From positions 2,699,484-2,763,483 of the forward strand of contig CAWINI010000004.1 in the NCBI GenBank assembly GCA_963837395.1: a DNA stretch of 64,000 nt, in the 5' to 3' direction. The notes under the pieces are model-generated. The model saw nothing but the letters and a program-made list of their open reading frames with translations. It was not told the origin of the DNA and made no database searches. Numbering within the stretch: the stretch's first letter is position 1; every line of letters begins with the position of its first letter. This stretch comes from an uncultured bacterium. Lineage in GTDB: Bacteria > Acidobacteriota > HRBIN11 > JAKEFK01. Positions 211 to 28,353 of the stretch are shown here, piece after piece. Both the position numbers and the translations under genes were made by a program.

Positions 211-339
211 GATGCATCCTCCGAGAATTGAAGTCAGTTGAATACTATGTTTTATAGCTCTTAATATGAATTAGAGGACTTATGAAAGTCATACCGTTAA
301 GATTATGTTAAGAACTAATGATAATTCTTTGTTTAATTA

Positions 340-1371
340 TTACCAGAGCTTTTTACGAGGCTCTTCTCCCAATCGTTTTGAGACTATAACCGATTGCTCA
401 TATAACTCATCTGCTTTCTGAATATCACCCCGATTATATGCAGCAATCGAAAGATTATACAACGCAAGTGCCTCGCGTGAACCATCCCCGATTTCTCGTG
501 CAAGGGACAGCGATTCTTCCCAATACGGAACAGCCTGTGGTTCGCGGCCTGACGAACTAAATAAGAAGCCGAGGTTTATTAAGGCATTGGCTTGATCTGC
601 CTTATCTCCGGTTTGGCGCGCAATATCTAAGGCTTCTGCGTATTTCTTTTCTGCTTCGGAACGGTTGCCTGCTCCCATTAATGCATATGCCTGGCGAAGA
701 AGATCACCACTTTGGTGCGGCTTTTGTATTGGAGTATCTTCTTTTATCTCTTCAGATTTTACGTCTGGTGCAACTTTTTCTCCTTCCGCCAGCGCCACTG
801 AAATTTCCTTCATCGCACCTGTTTGAATTTCAAATCCTTTGGTCTGGCTTCGATATCCTTGCAGCTGAATTTGCAGCAGATGCTTGCCGTTTAAGATGGA
901 TACATTTTCAAGATTCGTAACACCAAGCTCACGGCCATCCAGCCGAACCGTTGCGCCGGTTGGTGTGGAACGCACAGTTAGCATCGCAAGGCTTCCACGC
1001 TTTTCAGATTCAAACAACTTGATAATTTTTTGCGAAACCAAATCTTCATTTATTTTGTAATCAGGATTCCACTCGATCAGCTTGCGAAATGCAGACTGCG
1101 CTTTCGCTTGTTCGTTGCGATTAAATTCAGCTTGACCTAACAAATCGTAACTTTTTTCAATGATCGATTGTTCATCTTTTATCAAAGTTCGTTGCTTGGA
1201 TTCATTTTCAATCGATTGTATTAATCTTTCTAACATTGGTATAGATTGGTCTTGCTGTCTTGATTCAAACTTCTGCTGTGCTTCCGAAAATCGATCGTTC
1301 CAATCTTTAGATTGTGCATGAACCACAATCGCTGCGAATAAAAATAAAGCTGCAAGCCGAAATCGATTCAC
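340..1371 (-). CDS. secreted TPR-repeat protein with a central PEGA domain
   Basis: N-terminal signal peptide (MNRFRLAALFLFAAIVVHAQ); PEGA-like beta domain (LTVRSTPTGATVRLDGRELGVTN...GYRSQTKGFEIQ); TPR-like C-terminal repeats (LGFLFSSSGREPQAVPYWEESLSLAREIGD...ALYNLSIAAYNRGD); 2-nt gap to the downstream kinase gene. Confidence 0.7.
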   Translation of the reverse strand: MNRFRLAALFLFAAIVVHAQSKDWNDRFSEAQQKFESRQQDQSIPMLERLIQSIENESKQRTLIKDEQSIIEKSYDLLGQAEFNRNEQAKAQSAFRKLIEWNPDYKINEDLVSQKIIKLFESEKRGSLAMLTVRSTPTGATVRLDGRELGVTNLENVSILNGKHLLQIQLQGYRSQTKGFEIQTGAMKEISVALAEGEKVAPDVKSEEIKEDTPIQKPHQSGDLLRQAYALMGAGNRSEAEKKYAEALDIARQTGDKADQANALINLGFLFSSSGREPQAVPYWEESLSLAREIGDGSREALALYNLSIAAYNRGDIQKADELYEQSVIVSKRLGEEPRKKLW

Positions 1372-1373
1372 AA

Positions 1374-4229
1374 TTATTCCTCGAATAGTTGCGCTGAATT
1401 GTCTTCAATAATGGCGTGTAATGATTTTTCGGTTCCAGCTGAAAAATTAATCCTGGCAGTTTTTTCTCTTCCTAACTTTTCCCAGAACACTCGAATCTGT
1501 TTTACTCCTGCTTGAACTGGATACTTGAAAATTGGCGCGGTATCGATCTGTTCTCCTTCAACAAATAGTGTGCAATTACTGGGTTGTGCCGTTAATGTTA
1601 ATTGAGCCATCGGCGGAACCTTTATAATGGTCGATTCACCAGTCTTAATTTCGACACGTTCAGTTTGACGGATATAAGCTTCTTGAATCGAATTGCTAAC
1701 GATCATCACCTGGTAGCTTCCAGGTTTTAAACTCGATGAATCTTTTTCATCGGAGTTGAACAGAAGTGTTTTGTTTAGAAAAACTGAAATCGCAAAGTCT
1801 CCTTGATAAACCAGAGTACCTGGTTTTGCAGGAATCGCAGTTAGATCGAGCGCCGGTAAGTCTGATGTTTCTTCATTGATGATGAAAGTTGCAGGCTGAT
1901 AGTCTGCCATCTTCAATTCAAGTTGATGCGTTTGTCCGGCATGCAATTCCAAATCTGCCGGAGTTTTTAATCCTGTATCTTGTTGATCAATAAAAATAGA
2001 AGCACCATCAGGATTACTGCGAACAGTGAAATGTCGCAGCTCAGGCTGCTGCACAACTGTGTCCTGGGTCTGCAAATTTGAATTTGGTGCATCACTTTCA
2101 AACGAAGAATTTGGTGGCGGATCCGCAATTATTTGAGTTTGTGCCGGAGAAGTCTGTGCAGGGGATTGATTTTTATTTGTTGGAATTTGCTGTTGAACAA
2201 TTAACGGCGGTTGTTTATAGATCAGAAAATAATATGTGGCTGCAGCTCCGCCTAGAATCAAAAAAAATAAAGCCGCAATCCAACCTGCATAGCTTTTTGA
2301 TTCAGGTTCAACATACTCCTCAATATGTTCATCTTCAGCCGAAACCGGTACGTACATTGGTGCGGTTGGAGCAGGACGGATCGGTTGATCAAACGCAGAA
2401 AGAAATTCTTGCGTGTTCTGAAAACGTTTTGATGGATCTTTTTCCAGTGCTCTCAAAATGATTGACTCCAGTTGCGGACCAACGTGACAAAATTGCGATG
2501 GCCGCGGCGGAGGAGTATGCAGATGCGCATACATCATGCTGGCCGGAGTCCTGGCATCAAATGGAGCGCGTCCGGTCACCATTTCATAAAGAATGATTCC
2601 GGCTGAATACAAGTCGGCTCTGTGATCCGAACCTTGTTCCTTGAATTGTTCCGGTGCCATATAACGCGGAGTGCCTACCATCATTCCGGTTTGAGTTAAG
2701 TGTCCTGCTTCAGCAGAAAACGAAATGCCGAAATCCATCATCATTGCACGTCCGGTTCGATCGATCATGATGTTTTGCGGTTTCAAATCTCGATGAATGA
2801 TTCCTTGACTGTGCGCTGCACCCAGCGCATTTAATACCTGCCGCATAATTTCAATTGTTTGTTGTTCAGGCAGCGACCCCTGGAGATGAAGTATTTCGGA
2901 AAGCGTTTGCCCTTCGACGAATTCCATGGACACATAATGAACGCCGCCGGCTTCACCGATATCATATAGACGGCAAACATTTGGATGCGCGACTTTACGC
3001 GCCAAAATTACTTCCCGTTTCAAACGATTTAGATTCGTTTCATTACTGACCAGTTCGCGGTTCAAGGTTTTGATCGCAACTGAAATATCAAGCATTCGAT
3101 CTGTCGCTTTAAATACTGTTCCCATTCCGCCTTCGCCGATGCGTTTCTCAATCAAATACCGGTTCGCAAAAAATGAACCGGGTGTTGGTGAAGCCGGAGC
3201 AGTCCAGGCTGGCGAATGCACGGTTGGTGTCAATGAACTTTCGATCTTATTCAAATGATCAATTACTTCCTTCATTGATGCATGACGATTCTCACGTAAT
3301 TTCGCCATGGCCCTGGCAACGAAGTAATCCAATTCCGGTGGAAAAGGACCACAATCCGCATGCGATGACAATGGCCGCGCATTCTCATTCAGATGTTTGT
3401 ACATGAAACCCTGCGGCGTATTGGATGTAAAAGGCAGCCTTCCGGTCAGCATGTGATACAAAGTGACACCAAGCGAATAGATGTCTGCGCGCTGATCGAT
3501 ATCTTCGTCTTCGCTAAGCTGGCCACAAAGCTCAGGACTTACATATTCCAACTTTCCGATAAACATATTTGTGCGCGTAAATCGTTGAGTTTCTTTTGCT
3601 GTAGGACGCGCAATTCCGAAATCGATAACTTTTGTAGTTTCCACTCCTGATTCTGTTTGTACTAAAAACAAATTGTCTGGTGAAAGATCGCGATGGATAA
3701 TCCCTTTTTGATGTGCTGCCTCAAGCCCCATCGCAGCTTCGCGGATAATTCGTAAGGCATGCTGGATTGGAATATGCTGAATTCTTTGAATCCGTTGCAA
3801 CGCGGTTTCACCCCGCAGAAATTCCAGCACCATAAAAAATTGATTGTTTTCCAATGTACCGAATTCATAAAGTTCAACGAGATTTGGATGGCGAAGTTTC
3901 GCCAAGGTTTTTGCTTCACGAATAAATCGATTCACAAAATCTTGCGTCTCCGCAAGTTGGGTTTGAATCAGTTTAATGGCTCGTTGTTCATCTAAATAGA
4001 TGTGGCGCGCTCGATAGACCGCTCCCATTCCACCGCGGCCGATCCTTTCGAGAATTTCGTATTCACGAATACGCGTGCCAATCCACTGATCAGTAGGGGA
4101 CTCCACAATTAGCTCCTGATTGAGGCTATTATATTGCACGAAATGAAAGTTCTCCTCCTTATCAAGGGGGAGATGAAGAGGGGGTTGGAATATTTTCAAT
4201 TTCCAACCACCCCTTGCCCCCTCCTTCAT
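1374..4229 (-). CDS. transmembrane Ser/Thr protein kinase with two tandem catalytic domains and C-terminal PEGA domains
   Basis: Domain 1: GRGGMGAVY, AIK, HRDLSPDN, DFGIAR, SPE. Domain 2: GEGGMGTVF, VAIKTL, HRDLKPQN, DFG, APE. All catalytic motifs intact. One TM helix (WIAALFFLILGGAAATYYFLIY), an S/T/P/Q linker and two PEGA-like domains. The long N-terminal extension of this ORF is the reverse translation of intergenic hairpins; a likelier start is GTG at 4106 with upstream CAGGAG. Confidence 0.85.
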   Translation of the reverse strand: MKEGARGGWKLKIFQPPLHLPLDKEENFHFVQYNSLNQELIVESPTDQWIGTRIREYEILERIGRGGMGAVYRARHIYLDEQRAIKLIQTQLAETQDFVNRFIREAKTLAKLRHPNLVELYEFGTLENNQFFMVLEFLRGETALQRIQRIQHIPIQHALRIIREAAMGLEAAHQKGIIHRDLSPDNLFLVQTESGVETTKVIDFGIARPTAKETQRFTRTNMFIGKLEYVSPELCGQLSEDEDIDQRADIYSLGVTLYHMLTGRLPFTSNTPQGFMYKHLNENARPLSSHADCGPFPPELDYFVARAMAKLRENRHASMKEVIDHLNKIESSLTPTVHSPAWTAPASPTPGSFFANRYLIEKRIGEGGMGTVFKATDRMLDISVAIKTLNRELVSNETNLNRLKREVILARKVAHPNVCRLYDIGEAGGVHYVSMEFVEGQTLSEILHLQGSLPEQQTIEIMRQVLNALGAAHSQGIIHRDLKPQNIMIDRTGRAMMMDFGISFSAEAGHLTQTGMMVGTPRYMAPEQFKEQGSDHRADLYSAGIILYEMVTGRAPFDARTPASMMYAHLHTPPPRPSQFCHVGPQLESIILRALEKDPSKRFQNTQEFLSAFDQPIRPAPTAPMYVPVSAEDEHIEEYVEPESKSYAGWIAALFFLILGGAAATYYFLIYKQPPLIVQQQIPTNKNQSPAQTSPAQTQIIADPPPNSSFESDAPNSNLQTQDTVVQQPELRHFTVRSNPDGASIFIDQQDTGLKTPADLELHAGQTHQLELKMADYQPATFIINEETSDLPALDLTAIPAKPGTLVYQGDFAISVFLNKTLLFNSDEKDSSSLKPGSYQVMIVSNSIQEAYIRQTERVEIKTGESTIIKVPPMAQLTLTAQPSNCTLFVEGEQIDTAPIFKYPVQAGVKQIRVFWEKLGREKTARINFSAGTEKSLHAIIEDNSAQLFEE

Positions 4230-11860: not shown

Positions 11861-12673
11861 ATGAAGAATATGCGTTTTAGAGTTGTTACCCCTTTACTGA
11901 TGTTAGCTATGATTTTAACCTTCACAATTCCTGTTGCTCGCGCACAAGAGGACGTTGATCGTCCGCTCGTGTTTCAAGCTGCAGGTTCAATTATCGGAGC
12001 AATTCAGGGCACAGTAGATGCTTTTCGCGCTGAGCTGGGAGACCCGAACAATGGAAATAATCCGGGACCGCTGGCGGATGGTCGCCGCGAAATTAACTGG
12101 GATGGCGGAGGCTCGGATGCTACTACAGCTCCAGTAACACCGTTTAACGTATTTTTAAATACGCGCGGTGCACAGTTCAGCACACCGGGAATCGGTTTAT
12201 CACAAGCGCCGGTAACTGGTGGTGCGCAGGGCGGTCTGGTTGTGCTCTTGAACAATCCAAATTACGCCAACATCTTTAGTACTTTCAGCCCGCTGCGCTT
12301 GTTTACTCCAGTAGGAAGCAAAATCACAGAAGGACAATTTTTCGTGCCTGGCACAAATGGAGCAAATCCAGCAGCAGTGCGTGGCTTCGGCGCAGTTTTC
12401 ACAGATGTTGATAAGCCGGATGGTGATAAATCAGTCAAGCATAGCACTACGATCGAGTACTTTGACGCTCAAGGCAAACTGCTTTTCACCGCGCTGGTTC
12501 CATCTTCGCCTGGTGATGGTGGTCTATCCTTCTACGGTATTGTGTTTAAGAATCCCCTTATCGCTAGCGTGAGGATCAAGACTGGAGACGCCAAACCCGG
12601 GGCAAATGATGGCAAGAAAGATGTCGTAATGATGGATGATTTCATCTACGGCGAACCACAACAACTTCAGTAG
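11861..12673 (+). CDS. secreted hypothetical protein (Gly/Pro/Asn-rich, no recognisable domain)
   Basis: Clear signal peptide (MKNMRFRVVTPLLMLAMILTFTIPVARAQ); AGGAG-like RBS (tggagttcaacgATG). Confidence 0.6.
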   Translation: MKNMRFRVVTPLLMLAMILTFTIPVARAQEDVDRPLVFQAAGSIIGAIQGTVDAFRAELGDPNNGNNPGPLADGRREINWDGGGSDATTAPVTPFNVFLNTRGAQFSTPGIGLSQAPVTGGAQGGLVVLLNNPNYANIFSTFSPLRLFTPVGSKITEGQFFVPGTNGANPAAVRGFGAVFTDVDKPDGDKSVKHSTTIEYFDAQGKLLFTALVPSSPGDGGLSFYGIVFKNPLIASVRIKTGDAKPGANDGKKDVVMMDDFIYGEPQQLQ

Positions 12674-13083: not shown

Positions 13084-14625
13084 TTACCAGGCGTCTCCTT
13101 GTTTGTATCTTTCAGCTGGAAGTAAATCAAGCACCTTCTGAAATTCTGCTTTTGTAACATCATCCATAGGCACATTTTTAAGGTGATTGTAAGCCAACCT
13201 CCAGGCTGTAATGTGGTTATTGTCCATCAAGGAAGAATCTGCTTTTCGATCAAGCAAAAACTGAACTGCATCTAAATTGCCTTGTTCCGCTGTATTCATT
13301 AGTGCAGTTCTTCCCTTATTGTCTGCAATGTTTACATTAGCTCCAGCCGAAGTAAGTGTTTTTATATCTTCGACATGGTTTCTATCAGAAGCTTGAATGA
13401 GCGCCGTCTTACCATCCTTATCCTTTAGATCGAGATCTGCACTTTTGATCATTGCATCTTTCGCTGCCACAAAGGCATCAGGTGCTATGAAGTGCGGGGC
13501 ATCAAACAGATCCATAATCGCAGTTTTGCCATTTTTGTCTTGTAGATTTAAGTCTGCACCTTTATCTACCATTGCCTTAACCGATTCACCATCGACTGAC
13601 TTGCTTGCTTCCATCAATGCTGTGCGTCCATCCTTATTCATAATGTCAGGATTTTTGGATCGTTTAATCATCTCTTTTACTGCAGTTGGATCTGCGGGAG
13701 TTCCAGGAAAACCTTTCCGCAATGAAAGCATCAATGCTGTGTCTCCGTTTTTATCTTGCAAGTCGGGATCGCTGCGTCTTGCCAATGCTCTAATCACTTC
13801 TGGATTTCCTTTATCGATGGCTTCCATTAATGCCGTTTTGCCGTTCTCATCCTGCATATCGAAACCGGGATTGTGTCTCAACAATTCTCTTACTGAACGG
13901 CCATCTCCTTTGTTCACTGCTTCCATTAAAGGAGTGCGGCCATGATCATCAGGAATACTTGCATCAGCACCTTTTTGTAGCAAAGTTGTTGCGGCGTTGG
14001 AATGGCCATGTTTAACTGCATTCATCAAAGCAGTATTGCCATTTGCATCAATACTGTCCATGACGTTTGGACGATACTGCAACAGAGTTTCCACACTGTG
14101 ATTCAAACCCAGACTCGCTGCCTGCGACAGGGCTGTCTGACCATTTGAATCCTTTACAGTTACGTCTGCATTAAATCTTTTTACCAATGTTTCCATCGCT
14201 GTTTTATTACCGGACGTGGCCGCAAGCATTAAAGCAGTTTTGCCATTCACATCTTTGGAATTTACATTAGCGCCTTTCTTAAGAAGCTCTTCCATTTTCT
14301 TAGTATCATTTTTGAGAGTTGCATCTCTAAATTGATCATCGACTGTTTTCCCTATGTTTGATGTCGCTGTTGGAATTGCTGCCACATGGGGAGATGACAC
14401 AATCTGCGATTGGCGTGCGAAAGAACTCAACGACTGTTCAGCCATTTTTGCTTGAGCTCCACTCTTGGAAAGATTCGTGGATTTGGAATCTGTATCAGAT
14501 ACAGGAGCTTGTGGACTTGAATCCGTTGGAAGATTCTGATCTGACTGAACCTTTTCGGTATTAATTTCAGAATCCGTTGAGTTGGAAATGTTTTTAGTTC
14601 CGATAGGCGGTGTGGTGATGGACAT
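13084..14625 (-). CDS. ankyrin-repeat protein (about 11 ANK repeats) with an S/T-rich low-complexity N-terminus
   Basis: Repeated G-TALM-A...G......LL..GA..N motifs throughout; no signal peptide. Confidence 0.85.
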   Translation of the reverse strand: MSITTPPIGTKNISNSTDSEINTEKVQSDQNLPTDSSPQAPVSDTDSKSTNLSKSGAQAKMAEQSLSSFARQSQIVSSPHVAAIPTATSNIGKTVDDQFRDATLKNDTKKMEELLKKGANVNSKDVNGKTALMLAATSGNKTAMETLVKRFNADVTVKDSNGQTALSQAASLGLNHSVETLLQYRPNVMDSIDANGNTALMNAVKHGHSNAATTLLQKGADASIPDDHGRTPLMEAVNKGDGRSVRELLRHNPGFDMQDENGKTALMEAIDKGNPEVIRALARRSDPDLQDKNGDTALMLSLRKGFPGTPADPTAVKEMIKRSKNPDIMNKDGRTALMEASKSVDGESVKAMVDKGADLNLQDKNGKTAIMDLFDAPHFIAPDAFVAAKDAMIKSADLDLKDKDGKTALIQASDRNHVEDIKTLTSAGANVNIADNKGRTALMNTAEQGNLDAVQFLLDRKADSSLMDNNHITAWRLAYNHLKNVPMDDVTKAEFQKVLDLLPAERYKQGDAW

Positions 14626-14679: not shown

Positions 14680-14752
14680 TGAGCCTGACGAGATTCGAAC
14701 TCGTGACCTCCTGAATGCCATTCAGGCGCGCTCCCAACTGCGCCACAGGCCC
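14680..14752 (-). tRNA. tRNA-Ala (anticodon GGC)
   Basis: Hand-folded cloverleaf: acceptor GGGCCUG/CAGGCUC, D-stem GCGC/GCGC, anticodon stem CCUGA/UCAGG with loop AUGGCAU (identical to the E. coli tRNA-Ala GGC loop), T-loop UUCGAAU, discriminator A. CCA is not encoded. The acceptor stem shows G2.U71 and G3:C70. Confidence 0.8.
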
Positions 14753-19251: not shown

Positions 19252-19271
19252 GTATAAAATTGCGAGACATT

Positions 19272-19772
19272 ATGAAACGGGTGGCGGTTTATCCAGGAAC
19301 CTTCGATCCCATTACAAATGGTCACATTGATTTGATTAATCGTGCGCTTGAATTTGTGGATGAGTTGATCATTGCGATTCTGGTAAATTCCGAAAAAAAA
19401 CCACTTTTTTCTGTGCGTGAGCGGATTCAATTAATCAAAAAAGTACTTCCAGAAAATAAACGGATCCGCATCGAACAGTTTGATGGATTGCTTGTTGATT
19501 ACGCCACAAAAGTTGGAGCCCGAATGATTTTGCGCGGGCTTCGTGCAGTCAGTGATTTCGATTATGAATTTCAGATGGCGTTGATGAATCGCAGGCTTCA
19601 AGGACAAATCCAAACGGTATTTTTGGTGCCTGCAGAACAATATTCGTACGTTAGTTCGAGGCTTGTAAAGGAAATTTCCAATCTTGGTGGGACAGTTAAA
19701 GGATTAGTGCCACCAATAGTTGAAAAAAGAATGAAAGAAAAACTTCATCGGATGAAAGGGACAAAAACATGA
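19272..19772 (+). CDS. coaD: phosphopantetheine adenylyltransferase
   Basis: VAVYPGTFDPITNGHIDLINRA nucleotidyltransferase motif; the ORF-track start at 19260 is TTG, and the ATG at 19272 matches canonical CoaD N-termini. Confidence 0.9.
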   Translation: MKRVAVYPGTFDPITNGHIDLINRALEFVDELIIAILVNSEKKPLFSVRERIQLIKKVLPENKRIRIEQFDGLLVDYATKVGARMILRGLRAVSDFDYEFQMALMNRRLQGQIQTVFLVPAEQYSYVSSRLVKEISNLGGTVKGLVPPIVEKRMKEKLHRMKGTKT

Positions 19773-20947
19773 GGCTTACAAATCGCATTCAAAATATTAC
19801 AGAATCACCAACCATCGCGATTAGTTCGCGTGCATCTGCGATGAAGGCATCAGGAATTGATGTCATTGACTTTAGCGCAGGTGAACCTGATTTTCCAACC
19901 CCTGAAAATGTGAAGAACAAAGGGATTGAAGGAATCAAAACAAATTTTACAAAGTACACTCCTACTGCCGGAATTAAAAAGCTCCGTGAAGCTGTTGCTG
20001 CACGTTATGAGAAAAAATATGGACAACCAATCCGCGCTGAAGAAGTAATTTTAACCAATGGCGGAAAACAAGCTCTTTATAATTTGATGTGCAGTCTGGT
20101 GCAGGAAGGTGATGAGGTTTTGATTCCCGAACCTTACTGGGTAACATTTCCGGATCAAGTGCGATTAGCAGGCGGCACACCGGTCTTTGTTTCAACGAAG
20201 CCGGAAGAATCGTTCTTAATTCGGGCAGAGGAGATTGAAAAAAAGATTACACCGCGTTCACGTGTGTTGATTTTGAATAGTCCCAACAATCCTTCCGGTG
20301 CTGTAATTCCGCGGGATACGATGCAAGAGATCGTCCGATTATGTGCGCGAAAAAATCTAAGTTTGATTTTCGATGAATGCTATGACTGTTTTGTATTTCC
20401 TCCACATCAGCATACTTCACCGATGCATTTCTTTCCGGAAGCGCGAGAGTTTACTTTTGTTGTAAACACATTTTCAAAAGTGTACGCAATGACCGGGTGG
20501 CGTCTTGGATTCGCAATTGGACCGGCAGAGGTAATTTCTGCTTGCGATAAATTGCAAAGTCATACTACATCCAATCCCTCATCGATCAGCCAGTGGGCAG
20601 CTCTGGAAGCATTGGCAGGCGATCAAAGTTCAATTCAACTAATGTATGACGAATATTTGCGGCGACGACAATTTATTATGGAAGAAGCTTCAGCGATGCC
20701 CGGCGTTCGTTGCAATGAACCGATGGGAGCATTTTATTTGTTTCCAAATATTCAACCGCATCTAGGCAAAGATCTTCCTGATTCTGTGGCTTTTTGTAAA
20801 AAACTATTGGAAGAATGCCACGTAGGAACTGTCCCTGGTTCTGCTTTTGGAGTGGAAGGACATTTTCGAATTTCTTATGCTACATCTATGGAGAATTTGA
20901 AGGAAGGCTGCAAACGGATCCACGAATTTTTGGAAAGTAGATTATAA
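19769..20947 (+). CDS. class I/II pyridoxal-phosphate aminotransferase (aspartate aminotransferase-like)
   Basis: NPSGAV; SKVYAMTGWRLG with the PLP lysine; 392 aa; 4-nt overlap with coaD. Confidence 0.85.
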   Translation: MRLTNRIQNITESPTIAISSRASAMKASGIDVIDFSAGEPDFPTPENVKNKGIEGIKTNFTKYTPTAGIKKLREAVAARYEKKYGQPIRAEEVILTNGGKQALYNLMCSLVQEGDEVLIPEPYWVTFPDQVRLAGGTPVFVSTKPEESFLIRAEEIEKKITPRSRVLILNSPNNPSGAVIPRDTMQEIVRLCARKNLSLIFDECYDCFVFPPHQHTSPMHFFPEAREFTFVVNTFSKVYAMTGWRLGFAIGPAEVISACDKLQSHTTSNPSSISQWAALEALAGDQSSIQLMYDEYLRRRQFIMEEASAMPGVRCNEPMGAFYLFPNIQPHLGKDLPDSVAFCKKLLEECHVGTVPGSAFGVEGHFRISYATSMENLKEGCKRIHEFLESRL

Positions 20948-20974
20948 GGTAGCTGACTAAAGTTCACGCTCCAT

Positions 20975-21712
20975 ATGTCCATCAAAAACTTTTTTCTATC
21001 AATCTTCAGGTTCTTTTTTCATGTCATCGGTTTGATGATTGTTGGTGCACTCAGCACGTTCATCGCTTTGCGTTTTTTTACAACAGGTGATGAAGTGGTT
21101 GTTCCGAATTTAAAAGGCAAGGCACCGGTGGAGGCAATCAAACTGTTAACAGATAAAGGACTGCAGCTAAAAATTTTGCCACAAAAAAGATTTGATAAAG
21201 AAATTCCGGCAGAGCATATCATTTCGCAAGAACCCGTTGCCGATACCCGCATCAAAACCGGACGAAGTGTGGAAGTGTATATGAGCCTTGGCCCTGAAAA
21301 AATTGTTGTACCTGATCTGACCGGACAAACCACGCGCGTTGCGACGTTGACTCTGGATCAATATAAACTTTCACCAGGAAAAATCGTTTACGTCACATCT
21401 CCTGGTGCTGAATCCGATGCAGTATTAGCGCAATTTCCTTTGCCCGGAACTGTCGTTACTGATGTTCGCGTTGTAAATATTTTGGCGAACAACAGTATGT
21501 ATGTAAATCCAAGATCTTTTGTTATGCCTGATGTAATTGGAAAACCGGTTGATGAAGTAAACTCCTTTTTCAAGGATGCCGGGCTTCGTGTTAGTTCCTC
21601 GCAACCGATTGATTATCCTGGAATCGCTCCCGGAACTGTTGTAAAGCAATCTCCACCTGCTGGATACAAAGTCAGCAGCAATACTCCAATCAGTTTATAC
21701 TTTAGCAAGTAA
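20975..21712 (+). CDS. membrane-anchored protein with three PASTA domains and no kinase or PBP domain
   Basis: One N-terminal TM helix, then three repeats of the PASTA pattern (VVVPNLKGKAPVEAIKLL..., IVVPDLTGQTTRVATLTL..., FVMPDVIGKPVDEVNSFF...). Confidence 0.8.
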   Translation: MSIKNFFLSIFRFFFHVIGLMIVGALSTFIALRFFTTGDEVVVPNLKGKAPVEAIKLLTDKGLQLKILPQKRFDKEIPAEHIISQEPVADTRIKTGRSVEVYMSLGPEKIVVPDLTGQTTRVATLTLDQYKLSPGKIVYVTSPGAESDAVLAQFPLPGTVVTDVRVVNILANNSMYVNPRSFVMPDVIGKPVDEVNSFFKDAGLRVSSSQPIDYPGIAPGTVVKQSPPAGYKVSSNTPISLYFSK

Positions 21713-21716
21713 AGCT

Positions 21717-22388
21717 ATGGAAAAACGGATTGCACCATCGATTCTGTCAGCAGATTTTGCGCACCTTGCCGATCAAATAGAAATGGTTGAATCAGCAGGC
21801 GCAGACATGATCCATGTGGATGTGATGGATGGACATTTCGTGCCAAACATTACAATTGGTCCGGTTGTTGTTGAATGGATCCGTAAAGCCACGAATTTGC
21901 CATTAGATGTGCATCTGATGATCGAAAATTCAGATCGCTACATTGAAGCATTTGTAAAAGCTGGTGCGAATTTAATTTCAGTACATTTTGAAGCGAACAC
22001 GCATCTAAATCGCACTCTTCAACTGATCCATTCCTTAAACTGCAAGGCAGGTGTGGTGCTGAATCCAAGTAGTCCGGTAGATTGGCTTAGCGATTCGCTA
22101 TCTTACTTAGATTTCGTACTTCTAATGAGTGTTAATCCTGGTTTTGGCGGACAAAAATTTTTGCCGCATGTATTGCGCAAAGTGCAATATCTCCGATCGA
22201 TGCGAAGTGATTTGGGACAACATTTTGCAATCGAGATCGATGGCGGAATTGGACTGAATAATTTGAAGCAAGCTTTCGATGCAGGCTCAGATTGGATTGT
22301 GGCAGGATCGGCCATTTTTCAGAGTTCGGATCCAAGAGATACAGTTAAGAAAATGAAGCAAATCGCCCAGGAGTCCGAATCGGCGTGA
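21717..22388 (+). CDS. rpe: ribulose-phosphate 3-epimerase
   Basis: SILSADFAHLADQI...MIHVDVMDGHFVPNITIGP motif; 223 aa. Confidence 0.9.
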   Translation: MEKRIAPSILSADFAHLADQIEMVESAGADMIHVDVMDGHFVPNITIGPVVVEWIRKATNLPLDVHLMIENSDRYIEAFVKAGANLISVHFEANTHLNRTLQLIHSLNCKAGVVLNPSSPVDWLSDSLSYLDFVLLMSVNPGFGGQKFLPHVLRKVQYLRSMRSDLGQHFAIEIDGGIGLNNLKQAFDAGSDWIVAGSAIFQSSDPRDTVKKMKQIAQESESA

Positions 22389-22415
22389 AATCGATTTCCA
22401 GAGTTCGAGTGCGTT

Positions 22416-22823
22416 ATGCCGAAACGGACACAAATGGGTGTCGTTTATCACAGCAATTTTCTGGTTTATTTCGAAGTTGGTCGAACCGATTATTTTCGAC
22501 AATTCGGTTTTACTTATCGTGACTTAGAAAAGGACGGCATATTCATGCCGGTTACTGAATCCTATTGCCGCTACGACCGATCCGCTTATTATGATGACGA
22601 GCTCGACATCGTCACCACTCTTGAAATGATGTCCCGCCTGAAATTGCGGTTTAACTATGATGTATTTCGGAATTCAAATGAAAAAATTGCAGAAGGCTAT
22701 ACAATGCACGTACCGGTGAATTCTTCTGGAAAACCGTGTAAAATACCTGCCGCTTATCTTGCCGCGTTTCCTGTGAAAGAAAATGCGCGGGAATCCGGCA
22801 ATCCTCAGAGAGTTGGGAACTAA
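22416..22823 (+). CDS. acyl-CoA thioesterase (4HBT/YbgC hot-dog fold)
   Basis: VVYHSNFLVYFEVGRTDYFRQ hot-dog catalytic region; 135 aa. Confidence 0.8.
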   Translation: MPKRTQMGVVYHSNFLVYFEVGRTDYFRQFGFTYRDLEKDGIFMPVTESYCRYDRSAYYDDELDIVTTLEMMSRLKLRFNYDVFRNSNEKIAEGYTMHVPVNSSGKPCKIPAAYLAAFPVKENARESGNPQRVGN

Positions 22824-22826
22824 ACT

Positions 22827-22895
22827 TCAGTACCGAGTACTGAGTACTGAGTTCTGAGTTTTTACTCAGTACTCAGCACTCATTGCTCAGTACTA
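22827..22895. repeat. palindromic element made of GAGTACT(G/A) heptads; a member of a dispersed repeat family (second copy at 57666-57710)
   Basis: ccgagtactgagtactgagtt (22833-22853) against ccgagtactgaatactgagtt (57679-57699), one mismatch; the arms are reverse complements (ctgagt...actcag) around a TTTTT loop. Confidence 0.55.
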
Positions 22896-22902
22896 ATTTA
22901 AT

Positions 22903-23868
22903 ATGAACATAGTTGTAACCGGTGCGGCTGGTTTTATTGGCTCACATCTTTGTCAGAGTTTGATTTCGAAAGGACATAAAGTTACGGGTGTCGATTCATT
23001 TCTTGATTATTACCCGCGCTGGATCAAAGAAATGAATCTGGTAGAAATAAAAAGTAATCCTTCATTCCGTTTTATCGAAAAAAATATTTTGGAAATTAAT
23101 TGGCTTGATCTGCTCGATGGTATTGACGTCATCTATCATCTGGCCGCTCAGGCGGGAGTAAGGGCTAGCTGGGGGGAGAGTTTCCTTATTTATACCAAAA
23201 ACAATATTGAAGCGACGCAATTGATGCTTGAGGCGTCTAAAGATAGAAAGCTCAAAAAGTTTGTTTTCGCCTCTACGTCATCGATCTACGGTGATGCATA
23301 CGATATTCCGATGAAAGAGGATTCAGTCGTTAGACCGGTTTCACCGTATGGAGTGACAAAACAAGCTGCGGAGGGTCTGTGCTACTTATATTGGAAGAAT
23401 CATGGTGTTCCTTGCGTTTCGCTGCGTTATTTCACAGTATATGGACCCAGGCAACGGCCTGATATGGCTTTTTATAAATTTATTCTTGCGTTGATAGAAA
23501 ACCGCGCTTTAACGATCTTCGAAGATGGCAATCAAACCAGAGACTTTACCTTTGTTGATGATATAGTTGCCGGCACCGAACTCGCCTCACAAAATGGAAT
23601 TGAAGGACGTACATATAATCTTGGCGGTGGCAGCCAGTTGTCCGTGAATGATGTCCTAAAAATCCTTGGCGAAATCGCTGGCAAACAGGTTCAGGTGAAT
23701 TTTGCAGAGAAACAAAAAGGCGATATGCGAGATACGTTTGCATCGATAGAAAAAGCAAAGCAGGATCTAAAGTATGTTCCGAAAGTGAACTTACATGAAG
23801 GCTTATCGCGAGAATATCGTTGGCTTGCTGATTTACATAGCAGGGGATTGAGCTACAAAGTGAGTTGA
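22903..23868 (+). CDS. NAD-dependent sugar-nucleotide epimerase/dehydratase (extended SDR)
   Basis: TGAAGFIGSHL, Y-x3-K (YGVTKQAAE); 321 aa. Confidence 0.85.
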   Translation: MNIVVTGAAGFIGSHLCQSLISKGHKVTGVDSFLDYYPRWIKEMNLVEIKSNPSFRFIEKNILEINWLDLLDGIDVIYHLAAQAGVRASWGESFLIYTKNNIEATQLMLEASKDRKLKKFVFASTSSIYGDAYDIPMKEDSVVRPVSPYGVTKQAAEGLCYLYWKNHGVPCVSLRYFTVYGPRQRPDMAFYKFILALIENRALTIFEDGNQTRDFTFVDDIVAGTELASQNGIEGRTYNLGGGSQLSVNDVLKILGEIAGKQVQVNFAEKQKGDMRDTFASIEKAKQDLKYVPKVNLHEGLSREYRWLADLHSRGLSYKVS

Positions 23869-23880
23869 AGGGAACGACAG

Positions 23881-24696
23881 ATGAGTAAGAAATATTTGAT
23901 AATTCTAGCTGCACTGTTACTGGTTTTGGGATGCGGAGGGCCAAAGCACGCTGAGTTGGATCCAAACAAGCAAAACGATAAAGAATTGTACGAAACTGGC
24001 GAACGTGAAATGAAAGATCAAAATTATGATAAAGCGCGAGCCGCATTCAAACTCGTATTCGATAATTTTCCGAAAAGTGATTATCGCATTCTTGCTAAGT
24101 TGAATTACGCAGAAAGTTTTTACAAAGATGGAGGCGAAGCCAATTACATTCTTGCTATTCAGGAATATCAAGATTTCATTACATTGTTTCCCTTCAGTCC
24201 AAAAGCTGCGTATGCGCAATATCAAATTGGCGCTTGTTATTATCAGATGATGGAAAAGCCGGATCGTGATCAAACCAATACTAGAAAAGCCCTGGATGAA
24301 TTTCGTAAGGTGATCGATGGTTATCCGAATGGCGAATATTACAAGTCGGCATATGACCGATTAATAGAATGTTATCAAAAGCTTGCCGAACACGAATTTC
24401 TGATTGCTCGTTATTATAATCGCACCGGGAAACATATTGCGGCTGTAGAACGGTTGAAAGAATTACTTCAAAAATATCCGGAGAGTGTGCATACGGCTGA
24501 ACAGTATTATTATCTAGCTCATTCGTTGGAAGAACTTTCTCAAGGTCCGGAAAGCTGTGTTTACTATAGTAAGATCGTAGAAAAGTGGCCTGATTCAGAA
24601 TATTCTTCAAATGCACGTGAAGGCGCGAGCCGTGTTTGTAGCGGCGAAGCGCAAACCCAAACGCAAACTCAAACCCAAACGCAACCTTCAAATTAG
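23881..24696 (+). CDS. bamD: outer-membrane protein assembly lipoprotein BamD-like (TPR)
   Basis: Lipobox LVLGC; TPR-like repeats of BamD/YfiO type; C-terminal (TQ)6 tail. Confidence 0.7.
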   Translation: MSKKYLIILAALLLVLGCGGPKHAELDPNKQNDKELYETGEREMKDQNYDKARAAFKLVFDNFPKSDYRILAKLNYAESFYKDGGEANYILAIQEYQDFITLFPFSPKAAYAQYQIGACYYQMMEKPDRDQTNTRKALDEFRKVIDGYPNGEYYKSAYDRLIECYQKLAEHEFLIARYYNRTGKHIAAVERLKELLQKYPESVHTAEQYYYLAHSLEELSQGPESCVYYSKIVEKWPDSEYSSNAREGASRVCSGEAQTQTQTQTQTQPSN

Positions 24697-24861
24697 CTAT
24701 GTTTACCGTCTTTAGCGACGCTAAAGTGTCGTCTTATTGCTACAAGTATCGCTTGACAAGTGTAATACTTCTTGTGATAGTGTTATTCGATGCGAACCTC
24801 AAATGATTGAGGTTTGTGTCAAAATGGAATTAGTCAACGCATTCAGACAAGGGAGCGGAAA

Positions 24862-26112
24862 ATGACGAAAGCCTGGCTAAAACTTTTGTTTGGCTTTATG
24901 GCTTGCTTTTTCCTCATCAGCTATGGCACCTGCATTGCGCAGACAGAAGGGGATACTCAAACTCAGGGAACTCAGCAGGTGGAACCACAAGCAACTCAAG
25001 AGGAGACTCAGTCGGCGCAGCAACCCAGCACAGAGGCAAGCCCGCAACCAAAATCCGGTGAACTTCCACCTCCGCTTGAAGCGGAAATGGTGGTCGCCGA
25101 ACATTGGTCCAAAAACCCATTTCCACGCACCGTCGCTGCAGGCGCGCGTGTACATATCGTAGAACGTGGCGATACTTTATGGGACTTAGCGCAACGTTAC
25201 TACCAAAATCCATTTTTGTGGCCTCAAATCTGGGACGCAAATAAATATATTCCTAATGCTCATTGGATTTACCCTGGTGATCCGGTGATCATTCCACCAT
25301 TGACTCCGATCAGCGAACAAATGATCGCTCAGGAAGCACAACCTCCTGGACCGGAAGGAGAAGTTCCTGGTGGACCTGGAGGGGGTGCGCCCGGTGAAAA
25401 ACTTTATCCAATTGCACTCGATGTTGATTTATATTGCAGTGGCTTGATTGTCCCTGACACCGGTGGTTGGAGAGTTAAAATCATTGGCAATGAAGAAAAT
25501 AATTACAAAGTCGCACTATCGACTTTTGATATTGTTTATTTGAATCAAGGCGAAGCAGATGGTATCTCGCCCGGAGACGAATTTACAATCCTTCAGCACG
25601 TTCGCAAAATATTTCATCCGATAACTGGCGAATCTCTTGGTGACTATATAGTCCAAACAGGAAGACTCAAAGTTGTAGCAACACAGGAAAAAACTTCCAC
25701 TGCGCAAATTACATACGCCTGTGATGCGACTTTAGTTGGAGATTATTTAGTACCATTTGAGCCCAAAGAAGTTCCAAATCTCACCGATCTTCCTCCAGTA
25801 GATCGTTTCAGTTTGGAAAGGCCGAATCAGAAGGGATACGTCGTATTTGCAAAAGATGATCTCACCTCACTTGGTGATAACAACGAAGTGCAGATCGATG
25901 TTGGAGCTGCTGATGGTATTACAGTTGGAACACGCTTGATTGTTTACAGAAATCAAACTTCAGGCTATGAAAATACCGGTTTTGAACGGGACATTCCAAG
26001 ACGTGTTCTGGGTGAGATGGTAGTATTTTCCGTGCAAGACTCTACAGCTACTGGTCGGATCATACAGATGTACGACTTCGTCATGCAAGGAGATATGGTA
26101 GAGGTACGTTAG
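24862..26112 (+). CDS. secreted LysM-domain protein with two C-terminal beta-rich repeats
   Basis: Signal peptide; Q/T/E-rich linker; LysM (HIVERGDTLWDLAQRYY...PGDPVIIPP); start placed at ATG 24862 (GGGAG-N6-ATG) rather than the ORF-track start at 24814. Confidence 0.8.
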   Translation: MTKAWLKLLFGFMACFFLISYGTCIAQTEGDTQTQGTQQVEPQATQEETQSAQQPSTEASPQPKSGELPPPLEAEMVVAEHWSKNPFPRTVAAGARVHIVERGDTLWDLAQRYYQNPFLWPQIWDANKYIPNAHWIYPGDPVIIPPLTPISEQMIAQEAQPPGPEGEVPGGPGGGAPGEKLYPIALDVDLYCSGLIVPDTGGWRVKIIGNEENNYKVALSTFDIVYLNQGEADGISPGDEFTILQHVRKIFHPITGESLGDYIVQTGRLKVVATQEKTSTAQITYACDATLVGDYLVPFEPKEVPNLTDLPPVDRFSLERPNQKGYVVFAKDDLTSLGDNNEVQIDVGAADGITVGTRLIVYRNQTSGYENTGFERDIPRRVLGEMVVFSVQDSTATGRIIQMYDFVMQGDMVEVR

Positions 26113-26249: not shown

Positions 26250-28353
26250 ATGTCCACGTATGAAAAGCTTGGGGGTTATTTACTCTTCGAGAAACTAAGC
26301 GAGGACAAATTTTCAAATGACTTTCTTGCCGGGCAAATCTCAGGCTCTCAAATTCAGCAGATCTGCATCCTCAAACGTTTTGATCCTGCACTTGCAATAC
26401 TTCCCGATTTTATTCAGAACTTAAATCAAGAATACGAAGCAGTTAAAACTCTTTCTAATCCAAACATCATCAAACCGATATCTTTACTTCAGGATAAAAA
26501 AGAATACGCTGCAGTTTTCGATTTTGTGGAAGGAAAGACGCTACGAACTGTTTTAACAAAGTGCGGACAGGATGGATATCCATTTACCGTAGATCATGCT
26601 CTGCTTGTTGCCAGCCGGTTATGCACAGCCTTGGAATACCTTCATTCCAAGAAATTTAACGATCAGCGTTTGATGCATGGTTATGTTTCACCAGAAACAA
26701 TACTCGTAACTTATGATGGCGAAATTCGCCTTCAATATTTAGGCCTTGCACATGCTTTACTGAAATTTTCCGCAGGGAAAGAAAAATTATTTCACGATTA
26801 CAAAAGTTATCTATCTCCCGAAGTGATTGAAAATGAGAAATGGGGCCGGCCCAGTGATACTTATGGAGCGGGATTGGTTTTATATGAAATGCTCACCGGC
26901 GAAGTGTTAGATCGAACGCTGGATTTGGATGACACAATTGAAAAAGCTTTGATGAATTCAAATTCCGGTGATAAAGAACCCTTGCCTGATGATTTAAAAA
27001 AGCTTTTACGTCAAGCGCTTGCACCCGAAGCTCCATCAAGATTTTCTTCCATTGCTGATATGCGGAAAGCTTTGGATATGTTGTTGTTCTCAAGCGAATT
27101 TTCACCGACTACTTTTAATCTTGCATTTTTTATGCATTCCGTTTTTCGCGAAAATATTGATGAAGAATCAAAGAAAATTGCACTGTACAAGAAGACTGAT
27201 TTTTCAGCACACTTAAAAGAAGAGCCGCTACCTCCGGGGCCGGTTCCTGCAGCTCCAATCAAAAAAACCGTACCAGTTGGTGCAACAGTTGCAACGCAAA
27301 TTGTTACTCAATATGTTCCACAACCAGCTCCAGTCCATCATGTCGAACGCGAGCATCGTGCGCCTGCGCCTATGCATCAGCCAGTTTCAAAACAAGAGAT
27401 GTTTGAAACACCGGAGGAGAAGGAAAAATCAAAAGTTCCACTTCTTGCAGGTGCGTTATTAATTGTCGCTGTAGTCGCAGCAATCATTTACTTCTTTAGT
27501 TTGAAATCTACAAAAATTACAACAGCTCAAATTCCGCAGCAACTTCCGTCGCAAGTATTAACACCAGATCAAATCAAGGCGCAGGAAGCAGAACGAAAAC
27601 ATTTGGAAGAAGAAGCCATCAAAGCTCAAGAAGAAGCGCGGAAAAAAGATGAAGAGTTAAAGGCTTTGCAAGCAAAACTGGATGCACTTGTAAAAGCGCA
27701 ACAAGACCAAGCGAAGAAAAAGGTAGAAGATCTGACTGAAAAGCCGCCGAAGGTAGATCCGGCGGCAATCCGCAAGCTACAACTGGAAGCAAAAAAGTTG
27801 GAAGAAGAAAAGAAGCAGCAACAAGCATTGGCTGAACAAAAGTTAAAAGAGGCTCAATCAACGCCTTCCGCAGTTCAACCGGCTGCAAATGACACTACTG
27901 AGACGCCTGTAAACACGGCTCAGGCGGGTCAAGTTGTTCCAGCTTCAAACAATATTGGTGGTGATCAAAATATTCAACCAGATGAAGTGAAGCCGATTGA
28001 AACAGAGCAGCCACAACCGGAACCTGAACCGGAAAAGCCGGCAGTGGTGGAAGGTCAGGTTGTGGGCACTGGCTCCCGATGTGGTGAAACCGGAAATTGT
28101 AAGTCGAGTCAATCCTGCATATCCACGGATGGCGCAACAAAAGAAAGTAGAAGGAACGGTGATCATCAGCGTATTAATTTCTGAACATGGAGATGTGGCC
28201 GATGTCCGTGTTCTGCGGGAGGCCGGTGGATCCAGCGGTTTGAATGAAGCAGCTATGGCTGCAGTCCGAAAATGGAAGTTTCGTCCCGCCGTCAAAGAAG
28301 GAAAGCGCGTCAAAGTTTGGATGACCTATCCTATCGTTTTTAAACTTCAGTAG
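26250..28353 (+). CDS. pseudokinase-TM-coiled-coil-Pro-rich-TonB_C fusion protein (frameshifted in this assembly at about 28075)
   Basis: N-terminal kinase fold with degenerate motifs (no GxGxxG, HGY in place of HRD, YLG in place of DFG, but ILK, SPE and DxxxxG retained); TM VPLLAGALLIVAVVAAIIYFFSL; K/E coiled coil; QPQPEPEPEKP spacer; the TonB C-terminal domain (VNPAYP...SSGL..AA..AV.KWKF.P) continues in the +1 frame from about 28078 to 28353. Confidence 0.75.

Follow-up and report, generated by a model that had tools for sequence, protein, structure and literature searches.

The window, by which we mean the whole 64,000-nucleotide stretch of DNA analysed here, encodes a membrane protein that carries three PASTA domains and lacks a kinase. 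On balance, we consider it somewhat probable that this is a functional kinase-less PASTA protein of a diderm bacterium, a counterpart of the transmembrane (TM) helix and ectodomain of the kinase PrkC, which would bind peptidoglycan or lipid II and act via partners in the membrane. The protein is a typical representative of a known, uncharacterised family of diderm phyla, and sequence comparisons indicate that its gene is intact, functional and under purifying selection. The features discussed below are listed in Table 1.

Table 1. Coordinates of the PASTA gene, the segments of its product, and the associated genes in the window.
Feature	Coordinates	Strand	Description and basis
PASTA gene	20975..21712	+	245-aa bitopic membrane protein, three PASTA domains, no kinase; stop codon 21710-21712; from ORF
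Cytoplasmic N-terminus (predicted), residues 1-12	20975..21010	+	M1 conserved in at least 90% of sequences; ends in a conserved basic residue
TM helix, residues ~13-35	21011..21079	+	AlphaFold2 helix 3-36 and hydropathy
PASTA domain 1, residues ~40-104	21092..21286	+	Pfam and AlphaFold2 secondary structure; aligned to PknB PASTA1 (2KUI, 2KUD, 5E10)
PASTA domain 2, residues ~108-172	21296..21490	+	Pfam, AlphaFold2
PASTA domain 3, residues ~182-245	21518..21709	+	Best Pfam stretch: residues 183-245, model positions 2-64 of 64
rpe (ribulose-phosphate 3-epimerase)	21717..22388	+	TIGR01163, 296 bits (cut-off 212.6)
Probable operon	19260..24696	+	coaD, aspartate aminotransferase, PASTA, rpe, YbgC-like thioesterase, NAD-dependent sugar epimerase, bamD

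Architecture and membrane topology of the PASTA protein

A Pfam search of the 245-residue protein detected the PASTA family (PF03793) in three stretches, scoring 124.1 bits where the cut-off is 23.2 (E = 2e-36), and beyond PASTA it detected no family, with no match to Pkinase, Transpeptidase or PBP_dimer. The AlphaFold2 model of the protein (mean pLDDT 88.8) shows a long helix at its N-terminal end that is followed by three PASTA modules of alpha/beta structure. In the family alignment, Q85 and P87 of the first domain and P185 and Q225 of the third are invariant, and Q153 and P155 of the second are nearly so. The third domain is preceded by an 8-residue linker that is variable in sequence (identity 0.18) and falls under a pLDDT of 50 at residues 176-178. 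In the window, a local search of the six-frame ORFs by HMM and phmmer revealed no further PASTA gene.

The segment that precedes the TM helix, residues 1-12, is too short for a docking or juxtamembrane domain. Position 12 is a lysine or arginine in 51 of 53 aligned sequences, and the N-terminal flank of the helix contains two Lys/Arg residues and no Asp or Glu. As these flanking charges favour an N-in/C-out orientation, the protein is predicted to span the membrane in this way, with its PASTA domains facing the periplasm. Within the helix, residues 14-32 form the most hydrophobic 19-mer of the protein, and small side chains (G24, A25, S27, T28 and A31) line one face together with the aromatic F29. 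Positions 24, 25, 27, 28 and 31 are occupied by Gly, Ala, Ser or Thr in 44-49 of the 53 sequences, in both the window protein's own subfamily and a sister subfamily of ~320 residues, and pairwise identity of the TM helix in the core clade is 0.64, the same as that of the PASTA domains. The conservation of the small-residue face in both subfamilies suggests helix-helix coupling; the face could reflect homodimerisation or a constraint on insertion rather than a heterologous partner.

Relationship to PASTA kinases and PBPs

The closest structures of the window protein are the ectodomains of PknB and PrkC. Its best sequence matches in the PDB are 2KUI and 3PY9/3M9G, and the top Foldseek matches (5E12, 3PY9 and 3M9G; E 1e-13 to 1e-14) rank ahead of the PASTA domains of PBPs, which match far less well in fold (E 4e-7 to 1e-4, TM score 0.22). 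When compared with the NCBIfam PASTA-kinase model PknB_PASTA_kin (NF033483, 563 positions), residues 16-244 match positions 340-563 in collinear order, at 108.1 bits, which is below the model's cut-off of 450. The SpoVD model, TIGR02214, matches only the last PASTA domain, at 30 bits versus a cut-off of 688. In common with the Firmicute kinases PrkC, Stk1 and StkP (NF033483), the window protein thus has a single TM helix that is followed by three extracytoplasmic PASTA domains of the kinase type. It differs from Firmicute PrkC in that it has neither a kinase nor a juxtamembrane region, retaining only ~12 cytoplasmic residues, in that no prpC, rlmN or rsgA/cpgA adjoins its gene, and in its predicted location in the periplasm of a diderm, whereas PrkC is surface-exposed in a monoderm. 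The PknB ectodomain from M. tuberculosis (2KUI, 5E10, 5E12) has the highest sequence score among solved structures (E = 7e-18, ~28% identity), is also among the top fold matches, and shares the linear array of PASTA modules; PknB differs in having an N-terminal kinase as well as a fourth PASTA domain, and its gene resides in the pstP-rodA-pbpA-pknA-pknB operon, unlike the window locus.

The class B PBPs (PBP2x, S. aureus PBP1, and B. subtilis PBP2B and SpoVD) share the PASTA domain family with the window protein, but differ in that they contain a transpeptidase domain and two compactly packed C-terminal PASTA domains. They offer a precedent for a kinase-independent PASTA role in localisation and in the binding of partners and peptidoglycan. 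Specifically, the interaction between PBP2B and DivIB is strengthened by the PASTA domains of PBP2B (PMC7654742), and the PASTA domains of S. aureus PBP1 bind peptidoglycan (PMC8493512). For the kinases, binding of peptidoglycan fragments by the PASTA domains of PrkC is described in PMC5786024.

Genomic context

In the window, rpe starts 4 nt after the PASTA stop codon, no terminator-like site lies between the two genes, and they are probably co-transcribed. The first-pass annotation had described a protein with one TM helix and three PASTA domains, but no kinase or transpeptidase domain, directly before rpe, and had proposed an HMM search for PASTA as a check; this description is borne out by the Pfam stretches reported above, the AlphaFold2 model, the TIGR01163 match of rpe and the 4-nt gap. 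The feature is real, although the range originally assigned to it, 20975-22388, covers two genes, the PASTA gene and rpe. The aspartate aminotransferase gene located upstream (19769-20947) was likewise correctly described as intact, as it matches positions 2-361 of the 361 in Aminotran_1_2, and it ends 27 nt before the PASTA start.

The string of genes from coaD to bamD is a probable operon, as judged from its spacing and surroundings. The intergenic gaps, in order, are -4, 27, 4, 27, 79 and 12 nt, the first + strand terminator-like hairpin after the string is located at 24715-24732, and the same gene order is repeated in five related loci (L001-L003, L092 and L093). Terminator-like hairpins alone were used in this assignment, and cautiously; the scan for promoter-like sites returned 16 sites compared with 14.1 ± 3.4 in shuffled sequence, and thus no excess. 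Rfam detected one tRNA in the whole window and nothing near the PASTA gene. Because this string encodes BamD and the homologues with a named host come from Acidobacteriota, the host is a diderm, most likely belonging to Acidobacteriota, and not a Firmicute. Neighbours with an envelope theme include bamD and the gene of a LysM protein in the window, as well as Amidase_3 and murI genes after rpe in locus L005. The PASTA gene is not regularly found beside peptidoglycan synthase genes, and its steadiest neighbours, rpe and rsmB, are non-envelope genes.

The def-fmt-rsmB ... rpe arrangement is the neighbourhood of prkC in B. subtilis (PMC8359813), and the slot that Firmicute prkC occupies between def-fmt-rsmB and rpe is shared with relatives of the window gene. 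The Firmicute-type neighbourhood used in the comparison was def-fmt-rsmB-rlmN-prpC-prkC-rsgA-rpe. Of these genes, the window keeps rpe alone, and its PASTA gene is instead preceded by coaD and the aminotransferase gene. Among related loci, def-fmt-rsmB-PASTA-rpe is present in L009, def-fmt-rsmB-PASTA in L007 and L011, and PASTA-rpe in L005 and L006; overall, rpe follows the PASTA gene in L001-L003, L005, L006, L009, L092 and L093. Neither prpC nor rsgA is present among the Pfam-annotated genes of L001-L011, L092 and L093. For the ~320-residue sister subfamily, metagenome loci contain rpe downstream in 53 of 58 cases, rsmB upstream in 50 of 66, and both in 34 of 50; this tally draws on 80 metagenome loci that are not phylogenetically independent and that represent this one subfamily (alignment A2), not the window's clade. 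From these gene orders, the link of the PASTA family to PrkC is positional, and it appears to be old.

The sister subfamily also carries an extra C-terminal beta domain that the window protein does not have, and it shares with the S. aureus PrkC ectodomain the placement of a beta domain after the third PASTA domain. In Foldseek, the best alignment of a sister-subfamily chain extends over 295 columns and is to the whole S. aureus PrkC ectodomain (3PY9), with a global rmsd of 19 Å and a TM score of ~0.3 because the domains are flexibly linked. The beta domain gave no significant profile match to the PrkC Ig-like domain or to any Pfam family (best E 0.3, to Calx-beta), and the parallel with PrkC in this region therefore lies in the domain order and the whole-chain Foldseek alignment.

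Family breadth and purifying selection

The stand-alone TM-3xPASTA family is defined here by alignments A1 and A2 and is uncurated, with the window protein forming the reference row of A1. This protein has the features of the family, namely an N-terminal stub that is short and includes a basic residue, a small-residue face on the TM helix, three PASTA domains, no other catalytic domain, and rpe as the next gene downstream in the same orientation. Searches yielded 99 homologues and later 221; all of the 99, as well as the 120 best listed profile matches, are PASTA-only, and in an exhaustive search 140 of the best 150 representatives are without a kinase. The first-pass annotation's statement that stand-alone PASTA sensors are rare is at odds with these counts. 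Length and architecture, including the number of repeats, are constant across more than 130 homologues and across phyla, and the family comprises several independent 50%-identity clusters whose members have ~240-330 residues and match end to end. Named taxa include Acidobacteriota, Vicinamibacteria, Chitinispirillaceae and Nitrospinae. In databases, homologues are labelled 'PASTA domain-containing protein' or 'beta-lactam-binding protein with PASTA domain', a stand-alone category that shares the PASTA-only architecture and the ~240-330-residue size but is an annotation label only, and many kinase-less homologues are mislabelled 'serine/threonine-protein kinase' in JGI records. No curated NCBIfam model for the family was found, and literature searches on stand-alone or kinase-less PASTA proteins found no paper on it.

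Selection on the PASTA gene resembles that on its housekeeping neighbours. Relative to L001, its dN/dS is 0.060, compared with 0.055 for rpe and 0.062 for bamD, values that are approximate because dS is near saturation (pS ~0.72). The identity of the protein to three orthologues (78, 62 and 57%) tracks that of BamD (73, 62 and 55%).

Alternative explanations

The resemblance of the TM and PASTA portion to PASTA kinases, and the adjoining rpe gene, might be expected if a full-length kinase had recently lost its kinase domain or had been misassembled, and the first-pass annotation had called the protein a kinase-less PrkC remnant that may be a decayed prkC. This explanation is effectively refuted. 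The same protein of 244-245 residues, with the same neighbours, is present in independent assemblies at 57-96% identity, including the L093 orthologue at 93%, the low dN/dS and constant architecture are not those of a decaying gene, tblastn found no kinase fragment around the PASTA gene, the aminotransferase upstream is intact, and no kinase domain is present in the 99 homologues or the 120 best listed profile matches. There is also no room for one upstream: a kinase encoded just before the PASTA gene in relatives had been named as the observation that would count against the first-pass reading, and, as was expected there, none was found in 91 related loci, in which the open frame before the PASTA region is typically 13 codons long (median) and never exceeds 141. 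What survives of the original description is the correspondence to PrkC's membrane and ectodomain portion without its kinase, which agrees with the NF033483 alignment, the structures and the synteny of relatives; the term remnant does not.

The two other explanations take the gene to be functional. It is unlikely that the protein is a passive tether or spacer that runs from the inner membrane to peptidoglycan and fixes the distance to the wall without sensing or recruiting. Such a role would agree with the lack of a cytoplasmic or enzymatic domain, with a rod-like array of three modules similar to the linear PknB and PrkC ectodomains, and with a gene housed in a housekeeping operon that includes bamD, but the TM helix is conserved as strongly as the PASTA domains and keeps its small-residue face across subfamilies, which a mere anchor would not need, and the number of repeats and the protein length are held constant. 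We regard it as quite improbable that the protein is the sensory part of a two-piece, PrkC-like receptor, signalling by TM-TM or periplasmic contact to a separate Hanks kinase or pseudokinase; presentation of the PASTA domains to separately encoded kinases was one of the options in the first-pass annotation. The conserved helix-packing face is compatible with such contacts, and the window encodes two candidates: a kinase-TonB_C protein (26250-28350), whose gene follows five genes downstream in the same orientation, an arrangement kept in L001-L003, L092 and L093, and a tandem kinase with a PEGA domain (1374-4229). However, linkage to a kinase is confined to the close clade, as none of 88 other related loci has a kinase domain in the examined flanks. 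In the kinase-TonB_C protein, the HRD motif reads HGY and the DFG motif reads YLG, and as the catalytic Asp residues are absent the protein is probably unable to phosphorylate; its gene is frameshifted in the window at ~28064-28069 and is separated from the PASTA operon by terminator-like hairpins at 24715 and 26135. The tandem kinase gene is on the opposite strand at a distance of 17 kb, and its product has a PEGA surface domain of its own.

Proposed role and origin

In the reading that we prefer, in which the protein corresponds to PrkC minus its kinase, the three PASTA domains would extend as a rod from the inner membrane in the direction of the peptidoglycan layer, where they may bind un-crosslinked stem peptides, muropeptides or lipid II-type ligands, as reported for the PASTA domains of PrkC, PknB, StkP and PBPs. 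In B. subtilis PrkC, R500 is a ligand-contact residue. Muropeptide binding is not a property of every PASTA domain; that of M. tuberculosis PonA2 is reported to be non-binding. Because the window protein has no cytoplasmic domain, any output would have to be lateral. The likely route would be the small-xxx-small face of the TM helix, which may act through homodimerisation or by docking to another membrane protein, for which a peptidoglycan synthase, a flippase or a signalling protein would be candidates; alternatively, the PASTA surfaces may contact periplasmic partners. By either route, the protein would serve envelope growth as a localisation or adaptor factor, and would not be a receptor for phospho-signalling.

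With regard to origin, we tentatively raise the possibility, itself more doubtful than probable, that a TM helix with three PASTA domains and an optional beta domain, encoded between def-fmt-rsmB and rpe, was an ancestral kinase-independent wall sensor, and that the Firmicute PASTA kinases arose once its gene acquired a Hanks kinase along with prpC and rsgA. The unfused form in diderm phyla, Acidobacteriota, Nitrospinota and Fibrobacterota among them, would then still be a periplasmic reader of peptidoglycan or lipid II that steers wall synthesis or division via its TM helix and needs no phosphorylation.

Nearly all work on PASTA domains concerns those attached to Gram-positive kinases and PBPs. 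Sequence analysis indicates that several diderm phyla retain a PrkC-type ectodomain without a kinase, under purifying selection and in the ancient def-fmt-rsmB ... rpe neighbourhood. The family is thus a natural experiment on the phosphorylation-independent roles of PASTA domains, and it bears on whether the PASTA kinases originated by fusion or the kinase-less proteins by loss of a kinase.

A stand-alone PASTA protein precedes rpe

The interval 20975-22388 delimited by the first-pass annotation holds two genes, both on the + strand, the PASTA gene and rpe, with 4 nt between the stop codon of the former and the start of the latter. PASTA (PF03793) is the only Pfam family in the protein, matched in three stretches at 124 bits (gathering score 23.2), and an AlphaFold2 model built with 34 homologues (mean pLDDT 88.8, confident) consists of a single long helix over residues 3-36 and, after it, three PASTA modules of alpha/beta fold, the third preceded by a poorly conserved linker of low confidence. 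Hydrophobicity peaks at residues 14-32 (19-residue window), and two basic residues, with no acidic ones, flank the helix on its N-terminal side, in keeping with an N-in/C-out orientation; given this orientation and the helix position, only ~12 residues are cytoplasmic and the PASTA domains are periplasmic. The host is a diderm, since bamD belongs to this run of genes and those close homologues that have a taxon name come from Acidobacteriota. The window protein is bitopic: it crosses the inner membrane once, has no cytoplasmic domain and extends into the periplasm as a rod of three kinase-type PASTA domains. The ORF, Pfam and AlphaFold2 results bear out the original description of a kinase-less PASTA membrane protein directly before rpe, and the upstream aspartate-aminotransferase gene is intact, as had been claimed, ending 27 nt before the PASTA start codon.

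Features of the window and of the PASTA protein
Feature	Position	Strand	Details
TPR+PEGA protein	340-1371	-	directly downstream of tandem kinase, same strand
Tandem kinase	1374-4229	-	951 aa; two kinase domains + PEGA; 17 kb from PASTA gene
ORF	11861-12673	+	270 aa; no Pfam family
Ankyrin-repeat protein	13084-14625	-	513 aa, almost all repeats (Ank_2, 197 bits)
tRNA gene	14680-14752	-	adjoins ankyrin gene
PASTA gene	20975-21712	+	245 aa; ORF; PF03793
PASTA module 1	residues about 40-104		AlphaFold2
PASTA module 2	residues about 108-172		AlphaFold2
PASTA module 3	residues about 182-245		AlphaFold2
rpe	21717-22388	+	TIGR01163, 296 bits
LysM protein	24814-26112	+	432 aa; LysM + FlgT_C-like domains; low-complexity Q/E/P-rich N-terminal region
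Predicted pseudokinase	26250-28184
TonB_C domain	28069-28350		another frame; 96% identical to relative
GlyQ-GlyS fusion	42903-45710	+	glycyl-tRNA synthetase alpha and beta; single 935-aa ORF

The close-clade gene order is coaD, aminotransferase, PASTA, rpe, YbgC-like thioesterase, NAD-dependent epimerase, bamD, LysM protein and kinase-TonB_C. The PASTA gene is probably co-transcribed with the housekeeping and envelope genes from coaD to bamD, as the gaps between them are -4 to 79 nt and no terminator-like hairpin occurs before 24715. The LysM gene is kept downstream of bamD in every close relative. At one locus (L005, 7429-9958; member 33% identical) PASTA-rpe is followed by genes for an Amidase_3 N-acetylmuramoyl-L-alanine amidase and the glutamate racemase murI; no other sampled context has a gene of peptidoglycan metabolism as a direct neighbour. 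A 201-aa product from one assembly (P0065), with a 92% identical last PASTA domain and Pfam matches to PASTA and Ribul_P_3_epim, probably reflects a frameshift or a gene call that runs across the 4-nt junction, not a true fusion protein. Elsewhere, two close relatives (L092, L093) carry a 270-aa gene without Pfam matches at the position equivalent to 11861-12673. Proteins made almost wholly of ankyrin repeats, one of which the window encodes, are uncommon in free-living bacteria.

Relation to the PASTA kinases

The array belongs to the kinase type of PASTA. Residues 16-244 run collinear with the final 224 positions of the NCBIfam PASTA-kinase model at 108 bits, far under the 450-bit cut-off of that family; sequence searches rank the ectodomains of M. 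tuberculosis PknB and S. aureus PrkC first among solved structures, and Foldseek places the same structures at the top (E 1e-13 to 1e-14), well above PBP PASTA domains. Unlike the window protein, a sister subfamily of ~320 aa has an additional all-beta domain of about 70 residues C-terminal to PASTA3, and the structure that matches this subfamily best is the entire ectodomain of S. aureus PrkC (3PY9; 295 columns, E 6e-20), whereas only 203 columns align with the three-PASTA construct 3M9G. The order of TM helix, three PASTA domains and beta domain thus appears common to this subfamily and PrkC, which is only suggestive because the beta domain has no sequence match in PDB or Pfam. Within the subfamily alignment (A2; L009 5001-5975, P0285 residues ~253-320) this domain is conserved, with the consensus LFRYR...PG.EIWLLV...Y.DG.LV.

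Gene order is more telling about the relation to PrkC than the type of array. Among sampled members only ~30-35% identical to the window protein, L009 has def-fmt-rsmB-PASTA-rpe on a single strand, the PASTA gene beginning where rsmB ends; L007 and L011 have def-fmt-rsmB-PASTA, L005 and L006 have PASTA-rpe, L004 has rsmB-fmt-def convergent with the PASTA gene, and L008 and L010 have neither rsmB-side nor rpe linkage. Scanning metagenomes with the ~320-aa subfamily yielded 80 loci, tallied by small HMMs over those with enough flank: rpe is directly downstream in 53/58, rsmB directly upstream in 50/66, both flank the gene in 34/50, and def, fmt and rsmB all lie upstream in 31/44. This order puts the stand-alone PASTA gene in the position of prkC, which in Firmicutes belongs to a conserved prpC-prkC-cpgA triad (PMC6449344); compared with the Firmicute locus, the kinase domain is missing, the window gene has no prpC, rlmN or rsgA next to it, and neither prpC nor rsgA is among the Pfam-annotated genes of L001-L011, L092 and L093. 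In the window clade the upstream half is swapped for coaD and the aminotransferase gene, and the rpe linkage alone is kept. The family may descend from a kinase through loss of the catalytic half, or be the unfused ancestral form. We hold the identity and evolutionary placement of the window protein with high confidence. What seems new, as far as the literature searched shows, is the occurrence, in several diderm phyla, of kinase-less PASTA proteins with a common TM interface in the PrkC slot of def-fmt-rsmB...rpe; neither experimental nor comparative work on the family turned up there.

A large kinase-less family

Stand-alone PASTA sensors had been called rare, a view that the searches contradict. 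All 99 homologues from a word-indexed search are annotated with PASTA only, and a profile search gave 221 at E<=1e-10, the best 120 of which are all PASTA-only (224-417 aa). When phmmer was run exhaustively over 1.84 billion cluster representatives, 14,762 reached E<=1e-3 and 4,288 of them E<=1e-10; the best 150 include many independent ~240-330-aa clusters matching the query end-to-end, and just 10 of them have a kinase domain, all multi-PASTA proteins of 1,100-1,500 aa. With these ten as positive control, a kinase HMM found no kinase domain in 136 family members (0/136), and by Pfam ten mid-length matches are poly-PASTA proteins without a kinase. Named members come from Acidobacteriota, Vicinamibacteria, Chitinispirillaceae and Nitrospinae. 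NCBI labels them 'PASTA domain-containing protein' and JGI uses 'beta-lactam-binding protein with PASTA domain' or else the misleading 'serine/threonine-protein kinase'. The window gene is intact and unexceptional within this large family, for which databases thus already have a label. The exhaustive search also recovered giant metagenomic poly-PASTA proteins (P0100-P0247) of up to 5,204 aa, in which as many as 29 PASTA stretches match. Most have no kinase domain, some have EF-hand or Ig-like/ASH domains (P0165, P0146), and they seem to form a class of PASTA-repeat surface proteins yet to be explored.

Decay, a separate kinase, or kinase-independent function

The first-pass annotation had allowed that the gene may be a decayed prkC. 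A 244-245-aa protein with the same neighbours recurs in independent assemblies (57-96% identity), one a 2.3-Mb contig; dN/dS against the 78%-identical orthologue L001 is 0.060, beside 0.055 for rpe and 0.062 for bamD (approximate values, dS being near saturation), and identity to three orthologues (78/62/57%) tracks that of BamD (73/62/55%). Non-synonymous change is clearly suppressed, and the gene is under purifying selection. Searching by tblastn with three kinase domains, we found no kinase fragment near the gene; in 594 kb from 91 related loci, the open frame ahead of the PASTA region never exceeds 141 codons (median 13), which leaves these relatives no room for a kinase domain just upstream. 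Conserved length and neighbours, low dN/dS and the absence of upstream kinase fragments together rule out a decayed or misassembled prkC.

Pairing of the PASTA protein with a separately encoded kinase, as a split receptor, is improbable. Besides the PASTA gene the window has two kinase-bearing ORFs, neither with PASTA, and the 91 loci hold kinase domains only in the orthologue of the Hanks-type gene at 26250-28184 (+), ~4.4 kb downstream. This gene is syntenic with the PASTA operon in the close clade only, and comparative evidence outside that clade does not support the pairing. Its product is a predicted pseudokinase, because HGY replaces HRD and YLG replaces DFG. The gene is frameshifted near 28064-28069, be it by an error of sequencing or a genuine disruption; its 698-aa orthologues in L092 and L093 include TonB_C. 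The methyltransferase-like gene that comes next in L093 is absent from the window after the pseudokinase.

We somewhat favour a periplasmic role without phosphorylation, in which the protein would be a membrane-anchored binder of peptidoglycan or lipid II. Earlier work describes binding of wall fragments by PrkC PASTA domains (PMC5786024), binding of peptidoglycan by those of S. aureus PBP1 (PMC8493512) and partner contact through PASTA between PBP2B and DivIB (PMC7654742). By analogy with established PASTA domains, binding of peptidoglycan-derived ligands has about an even chance; alternatively the domains might mediate partner contacts, as in PBP2B-DivIB. With only ~12 cytoplasmic residues, any output must be lateral, and the TM helix is a candidate route. 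In the core clade it matches the PASTA domains in conservation (pairwise identity 0.64, against 0.60-0.64); among 53 sequences drawn from both subfamilies, positions 24, 25, 27, 28 and 31 are G/A/S/T in 44-49, position 12 is K/R in 51 and position 29 is aromatic in 39. Small residues spaced i/i+4, as here, are characteristic of helices that pack against each other. Partner coupling through the helix is a tentative proposal: by dimerising, or by docking to a second membrane protein, the binder would localise or modulate envelope growth. Not surprising in itself, the PASTA gene offers a good way into kinase-independent PASTA function and the question of how the PASTA kinases arose.
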